DNA from: Phycisphaeraceae bacterium | GTDB lineage: Bacteria; Planctomycetota; Phycisphaerae; Phycisphaerales; Zrk34 | Direction of reading: 5' to 3' | Length of the DNA stretch: 10,822 nt | Assembly (NCBI GenBank): GCA_028277685.1 | Contig: JANQFT010000356.1 | Coordinates: 1-10,822 of the forward strand | Part shown: positions 1-10,822 of the stretch, one piece after another | Numbering within the stretch: position 1 is the stretch's first letter | Layout: each line of letters begins with the position of its first letter | Translations under genes and position numbers: made by a program | The notes under the pieces: model-generated | The model's input: only the letters and a program-made list of their open reading frames with translations | Databases searched by the model: none | Told to the model about the DNA's origin: nothing

Positions 1-37
1 TGGCGGGGCGGCGCTCTGCCGGTTGAGCTACAGCCGC
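1..37 (-). tRNA. 5' portion (acceptor 5' strand, D-arm, start of anticodon stem) of a tRNA gene that continues beyond the window start; isotype undetermined
   Basis: Reverse complement of 1..37 reads GCGGCTG-TA-GCTC-AACCGGCA-GAGC-G-CCGCC..., a canonical acceptor/U8/D-stem-loop layout. The D-arm closely resembles the Ala tRNA at 3399..3470. The anticodon lies outside the window. Confidence 0.5.
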
Positions 38-46
38 AAGGAGAAA

Positions 47-86
47 GGCCGCCGCGCGACCTGTATCGCGCGGCGGCCGATCAGGC
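47..86 (-). terminator. Putative intrinsic terminator of the SPFH gene: perfect 12-bp GC-rich inverted repeat followed by a U-rich tract on the minus strand
   Basis: The + strand reads ggccgccgcgcg-acctgtat-cgcgcggcggcc, a 12-bp perfect stem with an 8-nt loop. On the minus strand the hairpin is followed by UUUCUCCUU. It sits immediately 3' of the SPFH stop. Confidence 0.45.
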
Positions 87-1235
87 ATCTTCATCTTCCA
101 TCATCGAGCGGAAACCGCAGCTGTTCTCATCGGTGGTCAGGCTTCGCACCTGCTCGACCAGGTCGCCCTTGCCGAGCACGAACGTTGCCTTCACGCCTTT
201 GAGTACTTCGCCGATTGCTTCCAGTTCGCGCATACGCGCGAGGGTGGGGTTGTCGGCCAGCAGCTTCGCGGTGTTCGCCTGGCTACGCGCCGCGGCGGTG
301 TCTTCACGACGTCGGATCAGGTTCGCTTCCGCCTGCTTCTGTGCGAGGATCACCTCGTTCAGAATCGACTTCATTTCACCGGGCAGGATGATGTCGCGCA
401 GGCCGATGCTTCGCACGACCACGCCGAACTCCGCCGCACGCGACGCCAGGGCGTTACGTACTTCGTTGCCCACTTCATCCTTATCCGACAGCAGCTTCTC
501 GAGCAGGCGGCCGCCCACCGCTTCACGTAGCACGAGCTGCGCTTCACGGTACAGGGCCTGGGCGTAATCGCTTACCACGGTGGCTGCCTTCACTGCATCG
601 ATTACCTGGTAAGTCACCACCAGGTTGACGCGAAGGGTTACTTTGTCGTTGGTCATGATTTCCTGACCCGCAACGTCGGCAACCTGTTCACGCAGATCGA
701 TGATCTTGCGCTCGATGCGGCCGGCACCGCGCCAGTAGACGTGCTTGCCTGCCTCCAGTTGCGCTACCTGTTTACCATCTCGATACAGCAGCACGGTTTC
801 ACCGGGCTCAATAGTCACGCCGTCGAACCAGTTCGATGCGCCCTGCATCGCGAGGATGGGCTCAATCTTGTTGTGTTCGAAGACGAAGTCGTTCACGTCG
901 TAGACTTCCACGTCGATCTTTGCTGGCGCTTTCCAGAACGCGTGGCGACCGGGACCAATCACCCAGCCGATACGGCCGTCCTTCCAGATAAGCGCTCGCT
1001 GGTTGTCGGTCAGATCAACCACTTCCAGGTGCGACGCGACCACGTGTTCGTCGACGAGTAAGTCGATGAGTGTATGCTCGAACTTCGTGTCCAACTTGTT
1101 GACGATGTGAACGCGATTGCGTCCGAACCAGTTGAACCATTGGCGGTACTTGCCCGGTTCGAGCAGACGGTGGAAATCGCCGTGGCGGAACCACAGGCCG
1201 ACTTCGTGTTTACGGATGCGAAGTGTTTTGAACAT
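81..1235 (-). CDS. SPFH/band-7 (stomatin/slipin-like) domain protein, ~385 aa, no obvious N-terminal transmembrane helix, N-terminal region with three copies of a ~45-aa beta-motif
   Basis: The ORF 81..1667 is open upstream, but only the ATG at 1233-1235 has a strong RBS (ccaaaAGGAGccaggacc-ATG). The upstream extension is low-complexity R/G/P-rich and overlaps a tRNA. The protein shows band-7 hallmarks: ...QEIMTNDKVTLRVNLVVTYQVID..., a coiled-coil C-terminal part (LAQKQAEANLIRRREDTAAARSQANTAKLLADNPTLARMRELEAIGEVLK), and three repeated ExG..W.R.G...PG.H.W motifs at the N-terminus. Confidence 0.8.
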   Translation of the reverse strand: MFKTLRIRKHEVGLWFRHGDFHRLLEPGKYRQWFNWFGRNRVHIVNKLDTKFEHTLIDLLVDEHVVASHLEVVDLTDNQRALIWKDGRIGWVIGPGRHAFWKAPAKIDVEVYDVNDFVFEHNKIEPILAMQGASNWFDGVTIEPGETVLLYRDGKQVAQLEAGKHVYWRGAGRIERKIIDLREQVADVAGQEIMTNDKVTLRVNLVVTYQVIDAVKAATVVSDYAQALYREAQLVLREAVGGRLLEKLLSDKDEVGNEVRNALASRAAEFGVVVRSIGLRDIILPGEMKSILNEVILAQKQAEANLIRRREDTAAARSQANTAKLLADNPTLARMRELEAIGEVLKGVKATFVLGKGDLVEQVRSLTTDENSCGFRSMMEDEDA

Positions 1236-1584
1236 GGTCCTGGCTCCTTTTGGGAGTGAGGTGTGTGAATCACGCGTGAACACCACGGCGTGTTGTGATA
1301 AGAAAAGCGGCGGGCCGGAGCGCAACGCATCACGCCCGTTGACCCCGTCATCAACAACGGCGTCGACTTGAGCGGCGGCCTGAAGCGTGCAGACGTCAAA
1401 CAGCCGCACGCCGCGAAGCGCCCTCCCCCCTGAGGGCAAAAACTTCGTCGGCGTGGGGCCGAATGACCGCCACGCGGTACCGCCGCGGTATCCGTCGAAC
1501 GACATGGCTGTGATGTCGGTGTTGCACAAGGCAACCGGTCGGGGCGATCGCGTGCATCCCGACCCGCCTGTTGGTGCCCTTAAC

Positions 1585-1635
1585 CGAGGGCCTTCGAGGG
1601 GACTTGAACCCCGAGGGTGGATAACCCTGCCATGG
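1585..1635 (-). other. tRNA-like remnant: T-arm-like hairpin (GGGG-TTCAAGT-CCCC) plus a short upstream hairpin; does not complete a cloverleaf
   Basis: The reverse complement contains ...AGGG-TTATCCA-CCCT-C-GGGG-TTCAAGT-CCCC-TCGAAGGC. No pairing 5' acceptor strand is present and there is no variable-region spacing. It abuts the 3' end of the tRNA at 1636..1708. Confidence 0.25.
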
Positions 1636-1708
1636 TGTGCGAGGCTGGATTCGAACCAGCTACCCATCGATCCTTAGTCGATTGCTCTACCTAATGAGCT
1701 ACTCGTGC
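1636..1708 (-). tRNA. tRNA, anticodon AAG (loop CTAAGGA), class-I (5-nt variable loop), A73; isotype uncertain (Leu-box anticodon on a non-Leu-type scaffold)
   Basis: Hand fold: acceptor GCACGAG/CTCGCAC with two adjacent A.C/C.A mismatches at 2:71 and 3:70. D-arm GCTC-ATTAGGTA-GAGC is perfect, anticodon stem ATCGA/TCGAT is perfect, and T-arm GCTGG-TTCGAAT-CCAGC is perfect. Confidence 0.6.
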
Positions 1709-1805
1709 ACATCACCTGAACCGGTCGAACCCGTGTCGCGGAATACATGTCGACAAAGTCTTGTGCACCGCCGGACGATACCGGTGACTGCTGAAGCAAA
1801 AGGAA

Positions 1806-1878
1806 CACGCGCGGCAGGAATCGAACCTGCATATGATGGTTTTGGAGGCCACCGCTCTTCCAATTGAGCTACGCACGT
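1806..1878 (-). tRNA. tRNA-Trp (anticodon CCA)
   Basis: Acceptor ACGTGCG/CGCGCGT (one G-U). D-arm GCTC-AATTGGAA-GAGC. Anticodon loop CTCCAAA is identical to the E. coli tRNA-Trp loop, with a C31:A39 mismatch as in known Trp tRNAs. T-arm GCAGG-TTCGATT-CCTGC, discriminator G. Confidence 0.85.
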
Positions 1879-1889
1879 ACTTCGGGCAA

Positions 1890-1962
1890 CTGCCCCGACT
1901 GGAATCGAACCTACACCCTTCGGGTTAAAAGCCCGATGCTCAGCCATTCGAACTCCAGGGTC
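1890..1962 (-). tRNA. tRNA-Lys(TTT)-like; anticodon arm, T-arm and 3' acceptor strand present, 5' third (acceptor 5' strand and D-arm) does not pair - probably degenerate/pseudo
   Basis: Anticodon stem TCGGG/CCCGA is perfect with loop CTTTTAA (TTT). T-arm GTAGG-TTCGATT-CCAGT has 2 G-U and 1 mismatch. The 3' acceptor is CGGGGCA+G, but the 5' region (…GACCCTGGAGTTCGAATGGCTGAGCA) has no matching TGCCCCG and no GCTC/GAGC D-stem. It lies 12 nt from tRNA-Trp. Confidence 0.45.
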
Positions 1963-2025
1963 GAAGTGTGTGACAAGGAAAGCATGGAATGGCATCCCAT
2001 CCCACGTTTCGAATTGTGCTTCTGG

Positions 2026-3258
2026 TCAATCCTTGTAGGGATCGAACTCATCCTCACCGGCCATGGCCACGCCGATGGGGGTGAGGGTGTGGATGATACG
2101 CACTGTTGAGCCGTGCGCTTCGAGTACTTCGGGCAGGCGCTTGTAGCAGTGGGGCGATTCATCGGTGCCCGCGCCCCGCAGTTCAACGCCGGCTTTGTGT
2201 ACCCAATCCATCATCATCTCACGCGAGATCTGGCCTTCGCTTTTGCGAACGAAGCCGCGCGCTTTCTTTGACCAGCGTTTCTTGCCAGCCGCTTGCGTAC
2301 GACTCATCACACGGCCGGCGCCGTGCACGGTCGATCGCAGGGCCATAACACTGTCTTCGCTGTCCATACCTTCAAGGATTACCGAAATATCGCCCATCGA
2401 ACCGCCTACGAATCCGCGTTGACCGGGAAACGCCGGCGTTGCGCCTTTGCGAACGATCCAGACATCGAGTTCGCAGTTGTCGATGAGGTGCGTTTCCTTC
2501 CACGCGTAGTTGTGATGGTTGTGTACCTCTTCAACAATGCGCGTTTCCAGCAGGCGGGCTACCTTCTGGCAAACCCAGTCGCGACCGGCATACGCATATT
2601 CCCCAGCCAGTTGCATGCACTGCAGATACTCCGCTCCGAGATTGGAATGCTCGTGGAACACAACCGGTTCAACGTGCATGCCGTCGGCACCACCACCTTT
2701 CTCGATAAAGAATGAAGCGATCTTGTGGCCGAGTCCGCGGCTGCCGAAGTGCACACCGCACCAGACGCGGTCTTCCTCATCAATGAACAGGTCAACGTAA
2801 TGGTTGCCCGAACCCACCGTGCCCAACTGTTCACGAGCCAGGTTTTTCAGGTTACGGTTCTTCGGACCTGTTATGCGCAACTGCTCAATCAGTTTCCAGG
2901 TTTCATCATCGAACAGTTCGTGGTCAACTTGCTCCTGGTTCTTTCGACCAACGCCGAACGAAATGCTCTTGAAGATCATGTTCATGATCTTGGCGATGTC
3001 GCGTCGCACGTCCTCGGCTTTGACGTCCAGTCGCACTGCTTTGTTGCCGCATGCGATGTCGTAACCAACACCCGAAGGTGAAACCATACCGTGGTAGGCC
3101 ACTACACCCCCGATCGGCATCGCGTAGCCCAGGTGGTGATCGCCCATCAGTGCGCCTGCCGCAGCATCCTTGTTTGCCAGACAAGTCTTGATCTGACGAA
3201 CTGCGCCTTCGTCCGGTTCACCCCAAACGGGTACGTTATCGATATTCGTGTAAGCCAT
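2026..3258 (-). CDS. rtcB: RtcB-family RNA 3'-phosphate/5'-OH ligase (RNA-splicing/repair ligase), 410 aa
   Basis: Full-length ORF with RBS GAGGTGcagc-ATG. RtcB hallmark motifs are present: ...GDHHLGYAMPIGGV..., ...DIACGN..., ...TVGSGNHYVDLF..., ...STVHGAGR..., with conserved His/Cys metal ligands and a length typical of RtcB. tRNA genes lie 52 nt upstream and 64 nt downstream on the same strand. Confidence 0.9.
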   Translation of the reverse strand: MAYTNIDNVPVWGEPDEGAVRQIKTCLANKDAAAGALMGDHHLGYAMPIGGVVAYHGMVSPSGVGYDIACGNKAVRLDVKAEDVRRDIAKIMNMIFKSISFGVGRKNQEQVDHELFDDETWKLIEQLRITGPKNRNLKNLAREQLGTVGSGNHYVDLFIDEEDRVWCGVHFGSRGLGHKIASFFIEKGGGADGMHVEPVVFHEHSNLGAEYLQCMQLAGEYAYAGRDWVCQKVARLLETRIVEEVHNHHNYAWKETHLIDNCELDVWIVRKGATPAFPGQRGFVGGSMGDISVILEGMDSEDSVMALRSTVHGAGRVMSRTQAAGKKRWSKKARGFVRKSEGQISREMMMDWVHKAGVELRGAGTDESPHCYKRLPEVLEAHGSTVRIIHTLTPIGVAMAGEDEFDPYKD

Positions 3259-3309
3259 GCTGCACCTCGCAAACTCATCATACGTGTGTTGTTGTTTCTA
3301 TTCTGTGAA

Positions 3310-3382
3310 AGCATTGTGTTGGAATCGAACCTGTGACCTTCTGGACCCAAACCGGACGCTCGGCCGATTGAGCTTCGCTCTG
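3310..3382 (-). pseudogene. tRNA-Pro(TGG)-like unit with intact 5' two-thirds but non-pairing 3' T-stem/acceptor strand (degenerate or chimeric tRNA)
   Basis: 5' acceptor CAGAGCG, A8A9, D-arm GCTC-AATCGGCC-GAGC perfect, anticodon stem TCCGG/CCAGA (1 mismatch), loop TTTGGGT (TGG). The T-loop TTCGATT is flanked by ACAGG on the 5' side and CCAAC on the 3' side, which do not pair. The 3' tail ACAATGC cannot pair with CAGAGCG. Confidence 0.4.
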
Positions 3383-3398
3383 GATAGAATGTCCGTAA

Positions 3399-3470
3399 TG
3401 GAGCCGCGGGGAGTTGAACCCCGATCATCCGGGTGCAAGCCGAGCGCTCTGCCAATTGAGCTACAGCCCC
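3399..3470 (-). tRNA. tRNA-Ala (anticodon TGC)
   Basis: Acceptor GGGGCTG/CGGCTCC with the diagnostic G3:U70 wobble. D-arm GCTC-AATTGGCA-GAGC. Anticodon loop CTTGCAC. T-arm CGGGG-TTCAACT-CCCCG, discriminator A. Confidence 0.85.
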
Positions 3471-3556
3471 CTGCTACGCCAAGGCTTCGCAGGGCTACGC
3501 GCACCTTCGCGTCATACGAAGTAGTGCGCGTTCTGCGAAGCTTCAGCGAAGCAGAA

Positions 3557-3630
3557 TGTCGCCGGAAGGATTCGAACCTTCACTGTCAGCCATCTCATGA
3601 CTGCGCCTCTGCCAGTTGGGCTACGACGAC
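3557..3630 (-). tRNA. tRNA, anticodon GAG (loop ATGAGAT), class-I, A73; member of a three-gene paralogous family; isotype uncertain
   Basis: Acceptor GTCGTCG/CGGCGAC (1 G-U). D-arm GCCC-AACTGGCAG-AGGC. Anticodon stem CAGTC/GGCTG. T-arm GAAGG-TTCGAAT-CCTTC is perfect. Variable loop is 5 nt. It lies 5 nt from the next tRNA. Confidence 0.6.
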
Positions 3631-3635
3631 GAGAA

Positions 3636-3709
3636 TAGCCCGGGTGGGAGTCGAACCCACAACTCACCAGTTTTAAGCCGGCGTCCTCTGCCAGTTGGGA
3701 TACCGAGCC
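3636..3709 (-). tRNA. tRNA, anticodon TAA (loop CTTAAAA), class-I, A73; paralog of 3557..3630 and 3712..3785; isotype uncertain
   Basis: Acceptor GGCTCGG/CCGGGCT (2 G-U). D-arm TCCC-AACTGGCAG-AGGA (T at position 10). Anticodon stem GCCGG/CTGGT. T-arm GTGGG-TTCGACT-CCCAC is perfect. 2-nt spacer to the next tRNA. Confidence 0.6.
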
Positions 3710-3711
3710 AA

Positions 3712-3785
3712 TACCGCCGACTGGATTCGAACCAGCACTGCACCGATTCTGAGTCGGTTCCCTCTGCCAGTTGGGGTACGACGGC
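3712..3785 (-). tRNA. tRNA, anticodon CAG (loop CTCAGAA), class-I, A73; paralog of the two preceding tRNAs; isotype uncertain
   Basis: Acceptor GCCGTCG/CGGCGGT (2 G-U). D-arm CCCC-AACTGGCAG-AGGG (C at position 10). Anticodon stem ACCGA/TCGGT is perfect. T-arm GCTGG-TTCGAAT-CCAGT. Variable loop GCAGT. Confidence 0.65.
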
Positions 3786-3867
3786 GTTAGTTATTTGGTG
3801 ATCTGGTGACTGGCGATTTCGTAATTTGATATTGCAGGCCGCACAAGACATTGCGCGAGGCGCGAAG

Positions 3868-3940
3868 CTGGGTTGGTGGGATTCGAACCTGCAAAAGCCG
3901 GATTCGTAATCCGGCGCCCGTCCAATTGAGCTTCGGGGTG
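3868..3940 (-). pseudogene. tRNA-Arg(ACG)-like unit; D-arm and anticodon arm perfect, but 3' T-stem half and acceptor 3' strand do not pair (degenerate or chimeric)
   Basis: D-arm GCTC-AATTGGAC-GGGC. Anticodon stem CCGGA/TCCGG is perfect with loop TTACGAA (ACG). The T-loop TTCGAAT has GCAGG on the 5' side but CCCAC on the 3' side. The 3' tail CAACCCA cannot pair with the 5' CACCCCG. A8A9 replaces U8. Confidence 0.4.
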
Positions 3941-3948
3941 GAGGCGAA

Positions 3949-4021
3949 AGCCGCAGGTCGGCGTCGAACCGACAACCTGCTGTTTACAAGACAGCTGCTT
4001 TGCCATTTGAGTTACTGCGGC
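3949..4021 (-). tRNA. tRNA-Thr (anticodon TGT)
   Basis: Acceptor GCCGCAG/CTGCGGC is perfect. Anticodon stem GCTGT/ACAGC is perfect with loop CTTGTAA. T-arm GTCGG-TTCGACG-CCGAC is perfect. The D-stem is weak. Confidence 0.8.
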
Positions 4022-4036
4022 AATGTGAAAACCAAA

Positions 4037-4110
4037 CGGCACCGACGGGATTCGAACCCGCGACCTCTTCCGTGACAGGGAAGCGCTCAGCCAAACCGAG
4101 CTCCGGCACC
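4037..4110 (-). tRNA. tRNA-Asp (anticodon GTC)
   Basis: Anticodon arm CTTCC-CTGTCAC-GGAAG. Variable loop plus T-arm AGGTC-GCGGG-TTCGAAT-CCCGT are nearly identical to E. coli tRNA-Asp. Acceptor GGTGCCG/CGGTGCC, discriminator G. Confidence 0.9.
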
Positions 4111-4235
4111 AGGCGAATCGCGGAGAGCAAACGCTCCACCGTCGGGCCACTGCGCTGTCGAACGCATGAAAAAATTTGACAGTGTCTATGCCACGATCCG
4201 TGTCGTCTACTTCTGCTGAAATGAATCAACAGCAA

Positions 4236-4306
4236 TTGACCCGGCAGGATTCGAACCTGCGTCCACCGATTATCAGTCGGCCGCTCATCCACTGAGCTAC
4301 GGGTCA
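4236..4306 (-). tRNA. tRNA-Ile (anticodon GAT)
   Basis: Acceptor TGACCCG/CGGGTCA is perfect. D-arm GCTC-AGTGGAT-GAGC. Anticodon stem GCCGA/TCGGT with loop CTGATAA, as in E. coli Ile. T-arm GCAGG-TTCGAAT-CCTGC, A73. Confidence 0.85.
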
Positions 4307-4400
4307 AGGACAGGCTCAGAGCGCACGCGCTCCAAGCCGTTGCATCCATCCGCTGTTCACTTGTCAAAGATCACTGCGCTGCAAGCAGCGCCCAAGGCAA

Positions 4401-4472
4401 TGGCTGGTCTCGGAGTTGAACCGAGGTCTCCCGCTTTTCAGACGAGCGCTATACCGACTGAGCCAACCAGCC
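4401..4472 (-). tRNA. tRNA-Phe (anticodon GAA)
   Basis: Acceptor GGCTGGT/ACCAGCC is perfect. D-arm GCTC-AGTCGGTA-TAGC, matching the Phe-type AGUCGGUAGAGC. Anticodon loop CTGAAAA. T-arm CTCGG-TTCAACT-CCGAG is perfect, A73. Confidence 0.85.
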
Positions 4473-4481
4473 GTATGTGAA

Positions 4482-4554
4482 TCGCCACGGTGGGATTCGA
4501 ACCCACGCACTCCTCTTTGTAAGAGAGGCGCTCTGGCCACTGAGCTACGCGGCA
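4482..4554 (-). tRNA. tRNA-Val (anticodon TAC)
   Basis: Anticodon arm CCTCT-CTTACAA-AGAGG is perfect and identical to the E. coli Val loop. T-arm GTGGG-TTCGAAT-CCCAC is perfect. D-arm GCTC-AGTGGCCA-GAGC, A73. 9 nt from tRNA-Phe. Confidence 0.85.
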
Positions 4555-4631
4555 AGATGTTCGCGCACCGATCGCGCATCCATGTCGGCCACGGCTTACA
4601 CCACCAACGGGTGTGCACGCTTCAGTTTCAA

Positions 4632-4704
4632 TGGCGGTGGCAGGATTTGAACCTGCGATCTCCGGGACATGCGCCCGGTGAGGATTCCGCTCCTCTACAC
4701 CGCA
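4632..4704 (-). tRNA. tRNA-Met (anticodon CAT) with initiator-like features (TTCAAAT T-loop, GGG/CCC anticodon stem, unpaired 1:72) but G at position 33
   Basis: Acceptor TGCGGTG/CACCGCC with a T1.C72 mismatch. D-arm GAGG-AGCGGAAT-CCTC. Anticodon arm CCGGG-CGCATGT-CCCGG. T-arm GCAGG-TTCAAAT-CCTGC, A73. Confidence 0.65.
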
Positions 4705-4705
4705 A

Positions 4706-4776
4706 TCGCGACGGTTGGATTTGAACCAACACCTTTCCCTTATGAGGGGAGTGCTCTGCCATTGAGCTACATCGCG
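4706..4776 (-). tRNA. tRNA-Met (anticodon CAT; loop CTCATAA), T-loop TTCAAAT; first gene of the array within this window, 1-nt spacer to next tRNA
   Basis: Acceptor CGCGATG/CGTCGCG (1 G-U). D-arm GCTC-AATGGCA-GAGC. Anticodon stem CTCCC/GGGAA (4 bp + mismatch) with loop CTCATAA. T-arm GTTGG-TTCAAAT-CCAAC is perfect, A73. Confidence 0.8.
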
Positions 4777-8207: not shown

Positions 8208-8588
8208 TCAGGTGCGGATAACGCCATCGCCATCCCGAAGGTCTTCTGATGACTGGTTGTCCTTCCACAGGAAGACCTGCCCTTTGATCAGACAGCATTG
8301 GCGGTCGACCGAAGCGATGCGTTGCATCTGCTGATCGCTGAGTGGCGGACTGAGCGCAGCTTCCATATTCGCCAGGTCATTCCGGGGTGTGGTGGAGAAT
8401 GGGATTGGCACCTGACCCCGCTGGATGGCCCACTTCACGCAGAGCGTGGTGGGGTGAAGATCGAGTTCCGCAGCGATCTCAATGAGCACCTGACGGTGAC
8501 CCGGCTGGGGAACATCAAAACTGTTCATCTCGACTGTCCAGTTACCCGGCAGGATGGCTCCAGTCATTTGGCTGGGGTGTGAAGACAT
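8208..8588 (-). pseudogene. C-terminal fragment (~100-125 aa) of an aldo/keto reductase (DkgA/YvgN-like); N-terminal two-thirds missing - gene remnant
   Basis: The translation ...RQVLIEIAAELDLHPTTLCVKWAIQRGQVPIPFSTTPRNDLANMEAALSPPLSDQQMQRIAS... aligns with the AKR C-terminus (…[54 protein letters not shown]…). The ORF is only 127-142 aa, versus ~275-320 aa for a full AKR. The space where the N-terminus should be is occupied by the divergently oriented araC-family gene. Confidence 0.5.
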
Positions 8589-8758
8589 CATGATCTCCGG
8601 CCGAGGCGACGAAGGGCAACGGGCAATGACAAACAACCGCCCCCTGAATGATCGATGATGGAGCCGTGGAACGGAATGACAGGAGTTGACGAGATAATAG
8701 CAATTCTTGACACTGTTTAAGCGACTTACTGACTCCGAAATCGACCCGTGAGTGCGAT

Positions 8759-9761: not shown

Positions 9762-10822
9762 CTAGGCTTCGTAAATCCGAATGTTGCTGAACAACACATC
9801 CGTACTGCCGTTGGCATCATCATCCGCCACGAAGACCAGGTTGCTCATGCTGCCGGTGTAGTATTGACCAATATTGATGCGGTAGCGGCGCACACCATCG
9901 GATGTCTGGTAAGCAGACTCACCAATCGATTGCCAACTGCCGGGCTTGGCGTCGCTGCCACCGAGATGCAACACTTTGGCTGGGCCGGTGGCGTAGTTGT
10001 CATCATTGTCCAGGCCGATGCCGATCAGTTCACCGATGTCGGTCGCGCTCAGATCAAACTCGATGATCGTGTTCGCCGTGATGGTGTAGTCGAACGCGGT
10101 CTTCTTCCAGGCATTGCCGGTCAAGTGAACCGTCTGGCTGTTGTCTTCGACCGTTGCGTCAGACGACTGGCCGTTCTGACCGTCCTGTTCACCCGAGTAA
10201 CCAACCAGGCTGTCATCGGTGAACACCAGTGGACCAGCCCCTTCGTGAACACTGACATTGCTGAACTTCACGTTCGCACTGCCATCGGCATCGTCGTCGG
10301 CCACGAAGACCAGATCGCTCATGCTACCGGTGAAGTATTGGCCCAACTGGATGACGTAATGACGCGTCCTTTCGGCACTGGTGTAACCGGATTCTTCGAT
10401 CGCCTGCCAACCCGTGGGCATGCCGTCGCTGCCGCCCAGGTGCAGCACCTTGGCCGGGCCGGTGGTGTAGCTGTCATCGTTGTCCAGGCCGATACCGATC
10501 GCTTCACCGATGTCGCTTGCGTTCAAGTCGAATTCAAGCACGGTCTTGCTGGTGACTTTGTAGTCGAAGGTCGTCTTCTTCCAGGCGTTGCCGGTCAGGT
10601 GGACGGTTGCCCCGCTGTCCTCGACGGTAACGCTGGTGGGCTTACCGTTCTGGCCGTCCTGCGTGGTGGTGTAGCTGCTGAAGGTGGTGCCTGTGAAGTC
10701 GATCTCCCTGTCAGCCGGCTCGTATACCTGGATGTTGCTGAACGATACATCCGCGCTGCCGTTGGCATCATCATCCGCCACGAAGACCAGGTTGCTCATG
10801 CTGCCGGTGTAGTACTGACCGA
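9762..10822 (-). CDS. C-terminal part of a large repeat protein built from ~159-aa tandem repeats (at least two full plus one partial copy in window); continues upstream beyond window end; function unknown (possible secreted beta-sandwich/lectin-like repeat protein)
   Basis: The frame stays open through 10822: the codons upstream of the ORF-track Met read ...GQYYTGS-MSNLVF..., matching the internal repeat junctions. Conserved blocks recur in each repeat: SNLVFVADDDANGS.DV.FSNI.VYE, TVHLTGNAWKKT.FDY, IGIGLDNDD.YTTGPAKVLHLGGSD, GQY(Y/F)TGSM. Stop at 9762. Confidence 0.7.
   Translation of the reverse strand, partial: GQYYTGSMSNLVFVADDDANGSADVSFSNIQVYEPADREIDFTGTTFSSYTTTQDGQNGKPTSVTVEDSGATVHLTGNAWKKTTFDYKVTSKTVLEFDLNASDIGEAIGIGLDNDDSYTTGPAKVLHLGGSDGMPTGWQAIEESGYTSAERTRHYVIQLGQYFTGSMSDLVFVADDDADGSANVKFSNVSVHEGAGPLVFTDDSLVGYSGEQDGQNGQSSDATVEDNSQTVHLTGNAWKKTAFDYTITANTIIEFDLSATDIGELIGIGLDNDDNYATGPAKVLHLGGSDAKPGSWQSIGESAYQTSDGVRRYRINIGQYYTGSMSNLVFVADDDANGSTDVLFSNIRIYEA
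9775..10822. repeat. Intragenic tandem DNA repeats, period 474 and 477 bp (three copies; copies 1 and 3 are the most similar)
   Basis: The motif catgctgccggtgtagta recurs at 9846, 10320 (as catgctaccggtgaagta) and 10797. The flanking ~90-nt blocks (gttgctgaac...catccgccacgaagaccaggttgctcatgctgccggtgtagta) recur at 9781-9863 and 10737-10814. Confidence 0.75.

Follow-up and report, generated by a model that had tools for sequence, protein, structure and literature searches.

Putative hybrid tRNA pseudogenes with T-arm junctions in a shrunken long tRNA array of a Phycisphaeraceae bacterium

The contig JANQFT010000356.1 of a Phycisphaeraceae bacterium (assembly GCA_028277685.1) was analysed over its whole length of 10,822 nt, referred to here as the window, and carries an array of tRNA genes in which three units combine the 5′ part of one tRNA gene with the 3′ end of another. 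We conclude, with a probability of roughly 0.85, that these units are hybrid tRNA pseudogenes that arose by three separate in-register deletions in a presumably horizontally acquired long tRNA array. Each unit has two parents, the genes that lay between these parents have been lost, and all junctions are located in the T-arm; the products have probably lost their function. A first-pass annotation had described three tRNA-like units (Arg-ACG-like, Pro-TGG-like and Lys-TTT-like) composed of halves that do not belong together, and both the units and the mismatch of their halves were borne out. All three lie on the minus strand, have a length of exactly 73 nt and follow the canonical tRNA register, and their 5′ and 3′ parts match different gene families, of which relatives hold intact members. 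The comparison makes use of ten related arrays (L001, L163, L165–L169 and L171–L173), which were found through homologues of the array's RtcB protein that are 76–83% identical to it. The array, the units and their parts are as follows.

1633–4776, minus strand: tRNA array with 13 intact tRNA genes and three hybrids, all in a single orientation (ARAGORN, Rfam and synteny)
3868–3940, minus strand: Arg-ACG::Gln-UUG hybrid, putative tRNA pseudogene, 73 nt, anticodon ACG
3888–3940, minus strand: 5′ part of the Arg-like unit, tRNA positions 1–53, from Arg-ACG (46/53 identical to Arg-ACG of L163; the six top 5′ matches are all Arg-ACG)
3868–3880, minus strand: 3′ part of the Arg-like unit, CCCACCAACCCAG, with discriminator G, most like Gln-UUG (10/13 to Gln-UUG of L001)
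3310–3382, minus strand: Pro-UGG::pre-RtcB (Gly-UCC position) hybrid, putative tRNA pseudogene, 73 nt, anticodon UGG
3330–3382, minus strand: 5′ part of the Pro-like unit, from Pro-UGG (the top 5′ matches are all Pro genes of relatives)
3310–3329, minus strand: T-loop TTCGATT and 3′ strands CCAACACAATGCT of the Pro-like unit, from the tRNA that stands just upstream of rtcB in all relatives (10/13 to L166, CCAACACGACGCA)
1890–1962, minus strand: Lys-UUU::Asn-GUU hybrid, putative tRNA pseudogene, 73 nt, anticodon UUU
1910–1962, minus strand: 5′ part of the Lys-like unit, from Lys-UUU (44/53 to Lys-UUU of L173; the top matches are Lys genes)
1890–1902, minus strand: 3′ part of the Lys-like unit, CCAGTCGGGGCAG, from Asn-GUU (11/13 to Asn-GUU, CCAGCCGGTGCAG, in L001, L163, L168 and L173)

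Structure of the three units

ARAGORN called 13 tRNAs in the window, none of which is one of the three units. With the Rfam tRNA model (RF00005, gathering score 29 bits), the 13 intact tRNAs of the array scored between 45 and 69 bits. The Arg-like unit was aligned over model positions 7–64 only and reached 24.1 bits, with two non-pairs in the T-stem, and the Pro-like unit over positions 9–63 only, reaching 13.9 bits with three T-stem non-pairs; both values lie below the gathering score. The Lys-like unit was aligned over its full length and, at 31.9 bits, is slightly above the gathering score; its acceptor stem contains two non-pairs and a deletion, and its T-stem one mismatch. It scores above the other two only through five pairs that GACCCUG forms by chance with CGGGGCA. 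The covariance model, which the first-pass annotation had named as a check on its hand folds, thus recovered a full cloverleaf for none of the units.

Base pairs of the stems were also counted with the T-loop as an anchor. A complete T-stem (5/5) together with a complete acceptor stem (7/7) was found in 101 of the 113 scorable array tRNAs from the window and its relatives, and the acceptor stem was complete in 103 of them. The Arg-like unit forms three of five T-stem pairs and at most two of seven acceptor pairs. For the Pro-like unit the values are 2/5 and at most 4/7, the latter off register only, so that the claim that the 3′ ends of these two units cannot pair with their 5′ halves is confirmed. 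The Lys-like unit, with 4/5 and 5/7, has both terminal acceptor pairs broken. The 7-bp acceptor stem and 5-bp T-stem of a functional canonical tRNA are thus present in none of the three. Minimum-free-energy folding yielded no cloverleaf for any unit; three intact controls kept their acceptor and T stems, two of them in a full cloverleaf.

The TTCRAnn T-loop, the D-arm and the anticodon arm with its 7-nt loop are retained in all three units. The 5′ two-thirds of the Pro-like and Arg-like units had been said to fold perfectly; this holds for the D-arm and the anticodon arm except for a C29–A41 mismatch in the anticodon stem of the Pro-like unit. The Lys-like unit had been taken as the reverse case, with an intact 3′ portion and a scrambled 5′ third, a view that has to be abandoned: its D-arm (GUUC/GAGC), its anticodon arm and its 5′ acceptor strand GACCCUG are those of Lys-UUU orthologues, and the foreign part is the 3′ end. 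A distant partner for the acceptor strands, as in split, permuted or intron-bearing tRNAs, was considered and rejected, the 7-mers CGGGGTG, CAGGGTC and, for the Pro-like unit, CGCTCTG being absent near the units.

Two of the units carry A8A9 (window 3932–3933 and 3374–3375, minus strand), with A at position 8 in place of the near-universal U. The first-pass annotation had recorded this dinucleotide correctly, but it is no sign of degeneracy. Position 8 varies between A, U and C among Arg-ACG orthologues, and A8A9 is found in intact, fully paired orthologues, namely Arg-ACG of L163 (CACCCCG AA GCUC) and Pro-UGG of L001 and L165 (CAGAGCG AA GCUC). It is a trait of the array lineage and not a mark of damage.

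The structural data also bear on the possibility that the hybrids work as non-canonical tRNAs or tRNA-like RNAs, for instance as a Lys-UUU decoder whose acceptor stem is loosened, or as decoys for nucleases that target tRNAs. The D and anticodon arms are well kept in all three, and the array is accompanied by an RNA repair ligase. In addition to exceeding the Rfam gathering score, the Lys-like unit has a G at position 69 (T in Asn genes), which makes a C4–G69 pair with the Lys 5′ strand. However, the acceptor stems of the Arg-like and Pro-like units are essentially unpaired, the Lys-like unit has lost acceptor pairs 1 and 2 as well as a T-stem pair, and the hybrid sequences are conserved in no relative, the relatives keeping intact parents instead. 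We consider functional hybrids very improbable; from the sequences, such a role would be conceivable for the Lys-like unit only.

Parents, junctions and deletion route

To assign parents, each tRNA was split at the T-loop, and the 53 nt at the 5′ end and the 13 nt at the 3′ end (3′ strand of the T-stem, 3′ strand of the acceptor stem and discriminator) were compared separately with about 200 array tRNAs of the relatives. Alignment of each half by itself had been proposed in the first-pass annotation and, run against the relatives' arrays, returned a distinct donor for each half of the three units. As a control, both halves matched the same orthologous gene in 12 of the 13 intact window tRNAs, the exception being an artefact of ungapped alignment. 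The related arrays hold intact copies of every proposed parent, and no hidden compensatory pairing came to light in them.

For the 3′ part of the Arg-like unit, Gln-UUG of L001 is the sole match of at least 10/13 among 196, and the Gln-UUG family has the highest mean identity (8.67) of about 45 families; in the relatives, Gln-UUG comes after Arg-ACG. The GTGGG of the Val and Leu-TAA tRNAs, which had been suggested as the counterpart of this 3′ half, therefore gives way to Gln-UUG as the best donor. In the Pro-like unit, the 5′ acceptor strand CAGAGCG and the A8A9 that follows are as in Pro-UGG of L001 and L165. Its T-loop TTCGATT is that of the tRNA preceding rtcB in L001, L165, L166, L168, L172 and L173 and occurs in no Pro gene, and the pre-RtcB tRNA family ranks first of about 45 for the 3′ part by mean identity. 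The distance from the end of this unit to the rtcB ATG is 51 nt, compared with 39–72 nt in the relatives, and the rtcB leader ATGATGA..GCGAGGTGC..CATG is common to the window and L173. The 5′ part of the Lys-like unit shares ACCCTG and CGGG-CTTTTAA-CCCG with L173, and the Asn-GUU family, with a mean of 10.5, ranks first for its 3′ part. Trp-CCA follows about 10 nt after the unit, as it follows Asn in the relatives. The donor predicted from synteny is thus rank 1 of about 45 families by mean identity in all three cases; were the rank random, the chance of such donor ranks would be (2/45)(1/45)(1/45), or about 2e-5.

The gene order points the same way. The consensus order of the relatives is Met, Met, Val, Phe, Ile, Asp, (Thr-UGU), Arg-ACG, (Ile-UAU), Gln-UUG, Arg-CCG, Leu-CAG, Leu-UAA, Leu-CAA, Leu-GAG, Ala, (HNH gene), Pro-UGG, His, (ORF, open reading frame), Pro-CGG, Gly-UCC, rtcB, Lys-CUU, Lys-UUU, Thr-CGU, Arg-UCU, Asn-GUU, Trp, a last tRNA, Band 7, Gly-GCC and Cys. 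The order in the window is Met, Met, Val, Phe, Ile, Asp, Thr-UGU, the Arg-like unit, Leu-CAG, Leu-UAA, Leu-GAG, Ala, the Pro-like unit, rtcB, the Lys-like unit, Trp, the last tRNA and Band 7, and it is syntenic with L001, L163, L165–L169, L171 and L173. The three odd units occupy gaps of this array. Judged from the orthologous arrays, the ancestral window would have had the relatives' succession from Thr-UGU to Leu-CAG and from Ala to rtcB, followed by (Lys-CUU), Lys-UUU, Thr-CGU, Arg-UCU, Asn-GUU and Trp.

In the hybrids, the last base specific to the 5′ parent is at tRNA position 50 or 51 and the first one specific to the 3′ parent at positions 59–63. The three junctions are thus bounded by positions 51/52 and 62/63, inside the near-invariant T-arm block GGTTCRAnnCC, around which the exact identity of the proposed parents extends over about 7–11 nt in the relatives. 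Each unit accordingly has the features of a hybrid gene: two parent genes, the same orientation of both in the ancestral arrangement, absence of the intervening DNA, and an in-register junction within shared sequence.

In the proposed mechanism, each deletion would have fused an upstream and a downstream gene of the same orientation at their T-arms and removed everything in between, giving Arg-ACG::Gln-UUG, Pro-UGG fused to the tRNA at the Gly-UCC position, and Lys-UUU::Asn-GUU. Such short-homology deletions may have proceeded via replication slippage, or via single-strand annealing after a break, conceivably one made by the arrays' HNH endonuclease. The length of 73 nt and the register are retained because the crossover lies in a block that has the same place in every tRNA. 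The 5′ strands of acceptor stem and T-stem then face the 3′ strands of another gene and therefore do not pair, and products with such stems should fail in RNase P cleavage, 3′-end processing and aminoacylation. Where the orphan 3′ halves depart from their donor families, they do so mostly by G:C to A:T transitions, which fit relaxed selection once the pairing partner was lost or, equally well, compensated A–U pairs in the true parents.

A further fusion, independent of those in the window, is present in L165 (5697–5771), where Arg-UCU is joined to Gly-GCC. This hybrid is identical to Arg-UCU of L001 at 50 of 53 positions on the 5′ side and to Gly-GCC of L001 at 13 of 13 on the 3′ side, and is followed by the homologous Gly-to-Cys spacer; about 2 kb with Asn, Trp, the last tRNA and Band 7 have been lost. 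As far as its sequence tells, it is a recurrence of the same kind of fusion, cleaner than the three of the window.

Several points weigh against the deletion model and have to be taken into account. The parents are deduced from diverged orthologues, the nearest RtcB being about 83% identical. The 13-nt signatures of unrelated isotypes reach 10–12 of 13 by chance, with a background of 2.8% of comparisons at 10 or more. Gln-UUG, the donor proposed for the Arg-like unit, appears to be the weakest of the three assignments: its match is 10/13, and its family mean is 8.7, with the next best family at 7.4. Moreover, the T-loop of this unit, TTCGAAT, is of the Arg type, and with a different Gln loop the shared block may be just CC. 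The Lys-like unit passes the Rfam threshold, so that its loss of function is putative, and the junctions are known from the assembled contig alone. A blind screen for discordant halves across all arrays flagged 37 of 184 scorable units, which is too noisy because anticodons have changed within orthologous bodies and unrelated acceptor strands reach 12/13; only the Arg-UCU::Gly-GCC fusion of L165 stood up in it.

An assembly artefact was also considered, in which a metagenome assembler jumped between tRNA genes through their common T-loop sequence. The contig is short, derived from a metagenome and ends inside a tRNA gene, and tRNA arrays are rich in repeats. Yet the 7–11 nt over which the parents are identical would be far below the usual k-mers of assemblers, and the orphan 3′ halves differ from the parent of every relative at two to four positions, mostly by G:C to A:T changes. 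The stem mismatch acquired in the 5′ half of the Pro-like unit is, like these changes, expected of real, decaying pseudogenes, and a like fusion occurs in the separate assembly of L165. An artefact is in our view very improbable.

Site-specific integration, the other source of such breakpoints that had been put forward, is extremely unlikely: tRNA 3′ halves are classic targets of integrases, so that a tyrosine integrase acting at the T-loops could have left orphan 3′ ends as duplicates of attachment (att) sites, and in some relatives the far end of the array holds a small gene of MerR/HTH_17 excisionase-like type. However, no integrase or recombinase ORF is present in the window by ORF list and Pfam, and each orphan 13-mer is single-copy there even with two mismatches allowed, so that the att-like direct repeats for which the first-pass annotation had proposed to look have no counterpart in the window. 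The units are full length and not 3′ fragments, and their foreign 3′ ends match the next genes of the array with the genes between missing, a signature of deletion and not of insertion. The other proposal of the first-pass annotation, inter-tRNA recombination within a mobile array that left pseudo-tRNAs, is supported by the comparison with the ten related arrays, and deletion between T-arms remains the preferred origin of the three units.

The array and its relatives

The remaining features of the array region are as follows.

2026–3258, minus strand: rtcB, encoding an RNA 3′-phosphate/5′-OH ligase of 410 aa, inside the array (Pfam PF01139, E = 3.4e-67)
81–1235, minus strand: SPFH/Band 7 gene on the downstream side of the array segment (Pfam PF01145, E = 8.6e-30)
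3786–3867, minus strand: 82-nt spacer at the place of the relatives' Arg-CCG (overlaid on Arg-CCG by MAFFT; local score like that of shuffled sequences)

Thirteen intact, three hybrid and one truncated tRNA genes are packed into 4.8 kb of the window, compared with 21–35 tRNA genes in relatives. They lie on the same strand, closely spaced and non-periodic, with rtcB among them and an HNH gene in relatives, which is the arrangement and the RNA-processing neighbourhood of the long tRNA arrays (L-arrays). On this analysis, the array of the window can be assigned to the L-arrays, a known and horizontally spread kind. L001 is a locus of a Planctomycetota genome (RtcB 76% identical) with 32 tRNA genes in matching order around rtcB. 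A large protein search returned RtcB homologues of 77–83% identity, and the contigs L163, L165–L169 and L171–L173 hold the same array with 7 to 35 tRNA genes. No closer relatives were found, that is, none above 76% RtcB identity in the genome collection, 67% in metagenomes and 83% in a search of 5.8 billion proteins. RtcB-linked arrays are scattered over Planctomycetota, Armatimonadota and Acidobacteriota.

The Band 7 gene has an equivalent position in L001, L163, L167, L169 and L171. Beyond it, the contig stops within the 5′ part of a tRNA (window 1–40, minus strand, GCGGCUGUAGCUCAACCGGCAGAGCGCCGCCCCGCCA), which corresponds to the Gly-GCC gene after Band 7 in the relatives. The window ORFs with Pfam matches encode RtcB, Band 7, GH10, an aldo/keto reductase fragment and AraC. 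The fragment, an ORF of 142 aa (window 8208–8636, minus strand), covers no more than the final 65 positions of the aldo/keto reductase profile and is a possible gene remnant. Another ORF, longer than 345 aa (window 9762–10822, minus strand), runs to the contig end; it is made up of internal repeats of about 170 aa and has no Pfam match.

The 82-nt spacer was considered as a decayed Arg-CCG gene and rejected, as this reading has the MAFFT alignment only and the local alignment score equals that of shuffled sequences (p about 0.5). The 63-nt spacer after rtcB contains no tRNA remnant by local alignment against shuffled sequences. In the Phe–Ile spacer (window 4341–4372, minus strand) there is a conserved block, CTTTGACAAGTGAACAGCGGATG, which is identical in L173 (about 560–600) and similar in L001 (3200–3230); it includes TTGACA and may be an internal promoter.

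Anticodons shift among orthologous tRNA bodies of these arrays. The pre-RtcB tRNA has UCC (Gly) in most, UUC (Glu) in L165 (3933–4007) and UUU (Lys) in L166 (4218–4292), and the Arg-CCG body carries CUG (Gln) in L171 (6686–6758). The last tRNA (window 1633–1708, minus strand) has a conserved body and a different anticodon in almost every relative (AAG, GAA, GUC, AUG, GAU, or an 8-nt loop), and pairing in its acceptor stem is poor (5/7 for the window copy). The tRNAs with Leu anticodons (CAG, UAA, GAG and AAG; window 3557–3785 and 1633–1708, minus strand) are only 73–76 nt long, with a 5-nt variable loop in place of the long variable arm of bacterial tRNA-Leu, and the relatives are alike in this respect.

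Directly after the last tRNA and before Band 7 there is a conserved structured element (window 1533–1632, minus strand), also seen in L001 (8228–8330), L163 (9934–10040), L166 (10596–10700), L168 (11678–11780), L169 (9526–9630), L171 (10129–10230) and L173 (3638–3740). It is built of three hairpins, with CACC after them; the second hairpin resembles a T-arm (GGGG-TTCRANT-CCCC), and in the third there are base changes on both sides. No Rfam match was obtained for this element; candidate identities are a tRNA-like RNA and the 3′ portion of a class II tRNA. Besides the HNH gene carried by some relatives, one relative also has a TROVE/Ro60 gene and an EndoV-like gene. Just upstream of the TROVE/Ro60-like gene of L169 (3032–4372), inside the array, lie three T-arm-bearing elements that are not tRNAs (2500–2950); they may be Y RNA (YrlA-like) genes near rtcB.

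Significance and comparison with known systems

The fusions represent an ordinary kind of gene-cluster decay. They are the expected behaviour of tandem homologous genes and by themselves open no new question. They show, with identified parents, a route by which a presumably horizontally acquired tRNA array loses genes, and the leftovers resemble full-length tRNAs with mismatched ends because the deletions use a block present in every tRNA gene. In annotation, units of this sort can exceed covariance thresholds (one does so here, at 31.9 bits) and be miscounted as tRNA genes, or be misread as integration scars; matching their two halves separately to syntenic arrays offers a simple way to tell these cases apart. 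It is rather unlikely that in-register fusion in the T-arm is the main route by which such arrays shrink and that it occasionally yields usable hybrids in which anticodon and acceptor identity are newly combined. The candidate for such a hybrid would be Lys-UUU::Asn-GUU, which passes the Rfam threshold and in which a substitution restores one acceptor pair. If this were true, then together with the frequent anticodon switches in orthologous bodies the arrays would be a natural workshop for new tRNA identities.

L-arrays have been described as horizontally transferred, with a neighbourhood enriched in rtcB and HNH endonuclease genes (Santamaria-Gomez et al. 2021, PMC8421152). As in those, the tRNA genes of the window are co-oriented and non-periodic and have rtcB embedded among them, with an HNH gene in relatives; the window holds a reduced version, in which 13 intact genes stand where relatives have up to 35. 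That study deals with distribution, regulation and function, whereas our results concern tRNA chimeras, of which a term search of its text found no mention.

tRNA gene fragments at the attachment sites of integrative elements are the subject of van der Gulik et al. 2023 (PMC9897764). Such fragments resemble the window units in being non-functional partial tRNA sequences that confuse annotation, with breakpoints often in the 3′ half. They duplicate the end of an intact target, however, and flank inserted DNA with an integrase, whereas the window units are full length, have two parents and go with deletions, and the window contains neither a repeat nor an integrase.

A search of one literature collection for natural bacterial hybrid tRNA genes found no directly relevant precedent. 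The closest parallel is the tRNA cluster of phage T4, in which, as McClain and Foss are said to have reported in the 1980s, hybrid tRNA genes arose by unequal recombination between neighbours. There, too, each hybrid is reported to have carried the 5′ part of one gene joined without a shift of register to the 3′ part of a second gene from the cluster, the intervening DNA having been lost and the crossover having taken place in sequence common to both genes. The T4 hybrids reportedly came from laboratory selection, and some of them worked as suppressors, whereas the fusions of the window are natural, number three in one array, are confined to the T-arm and are apparently dead.

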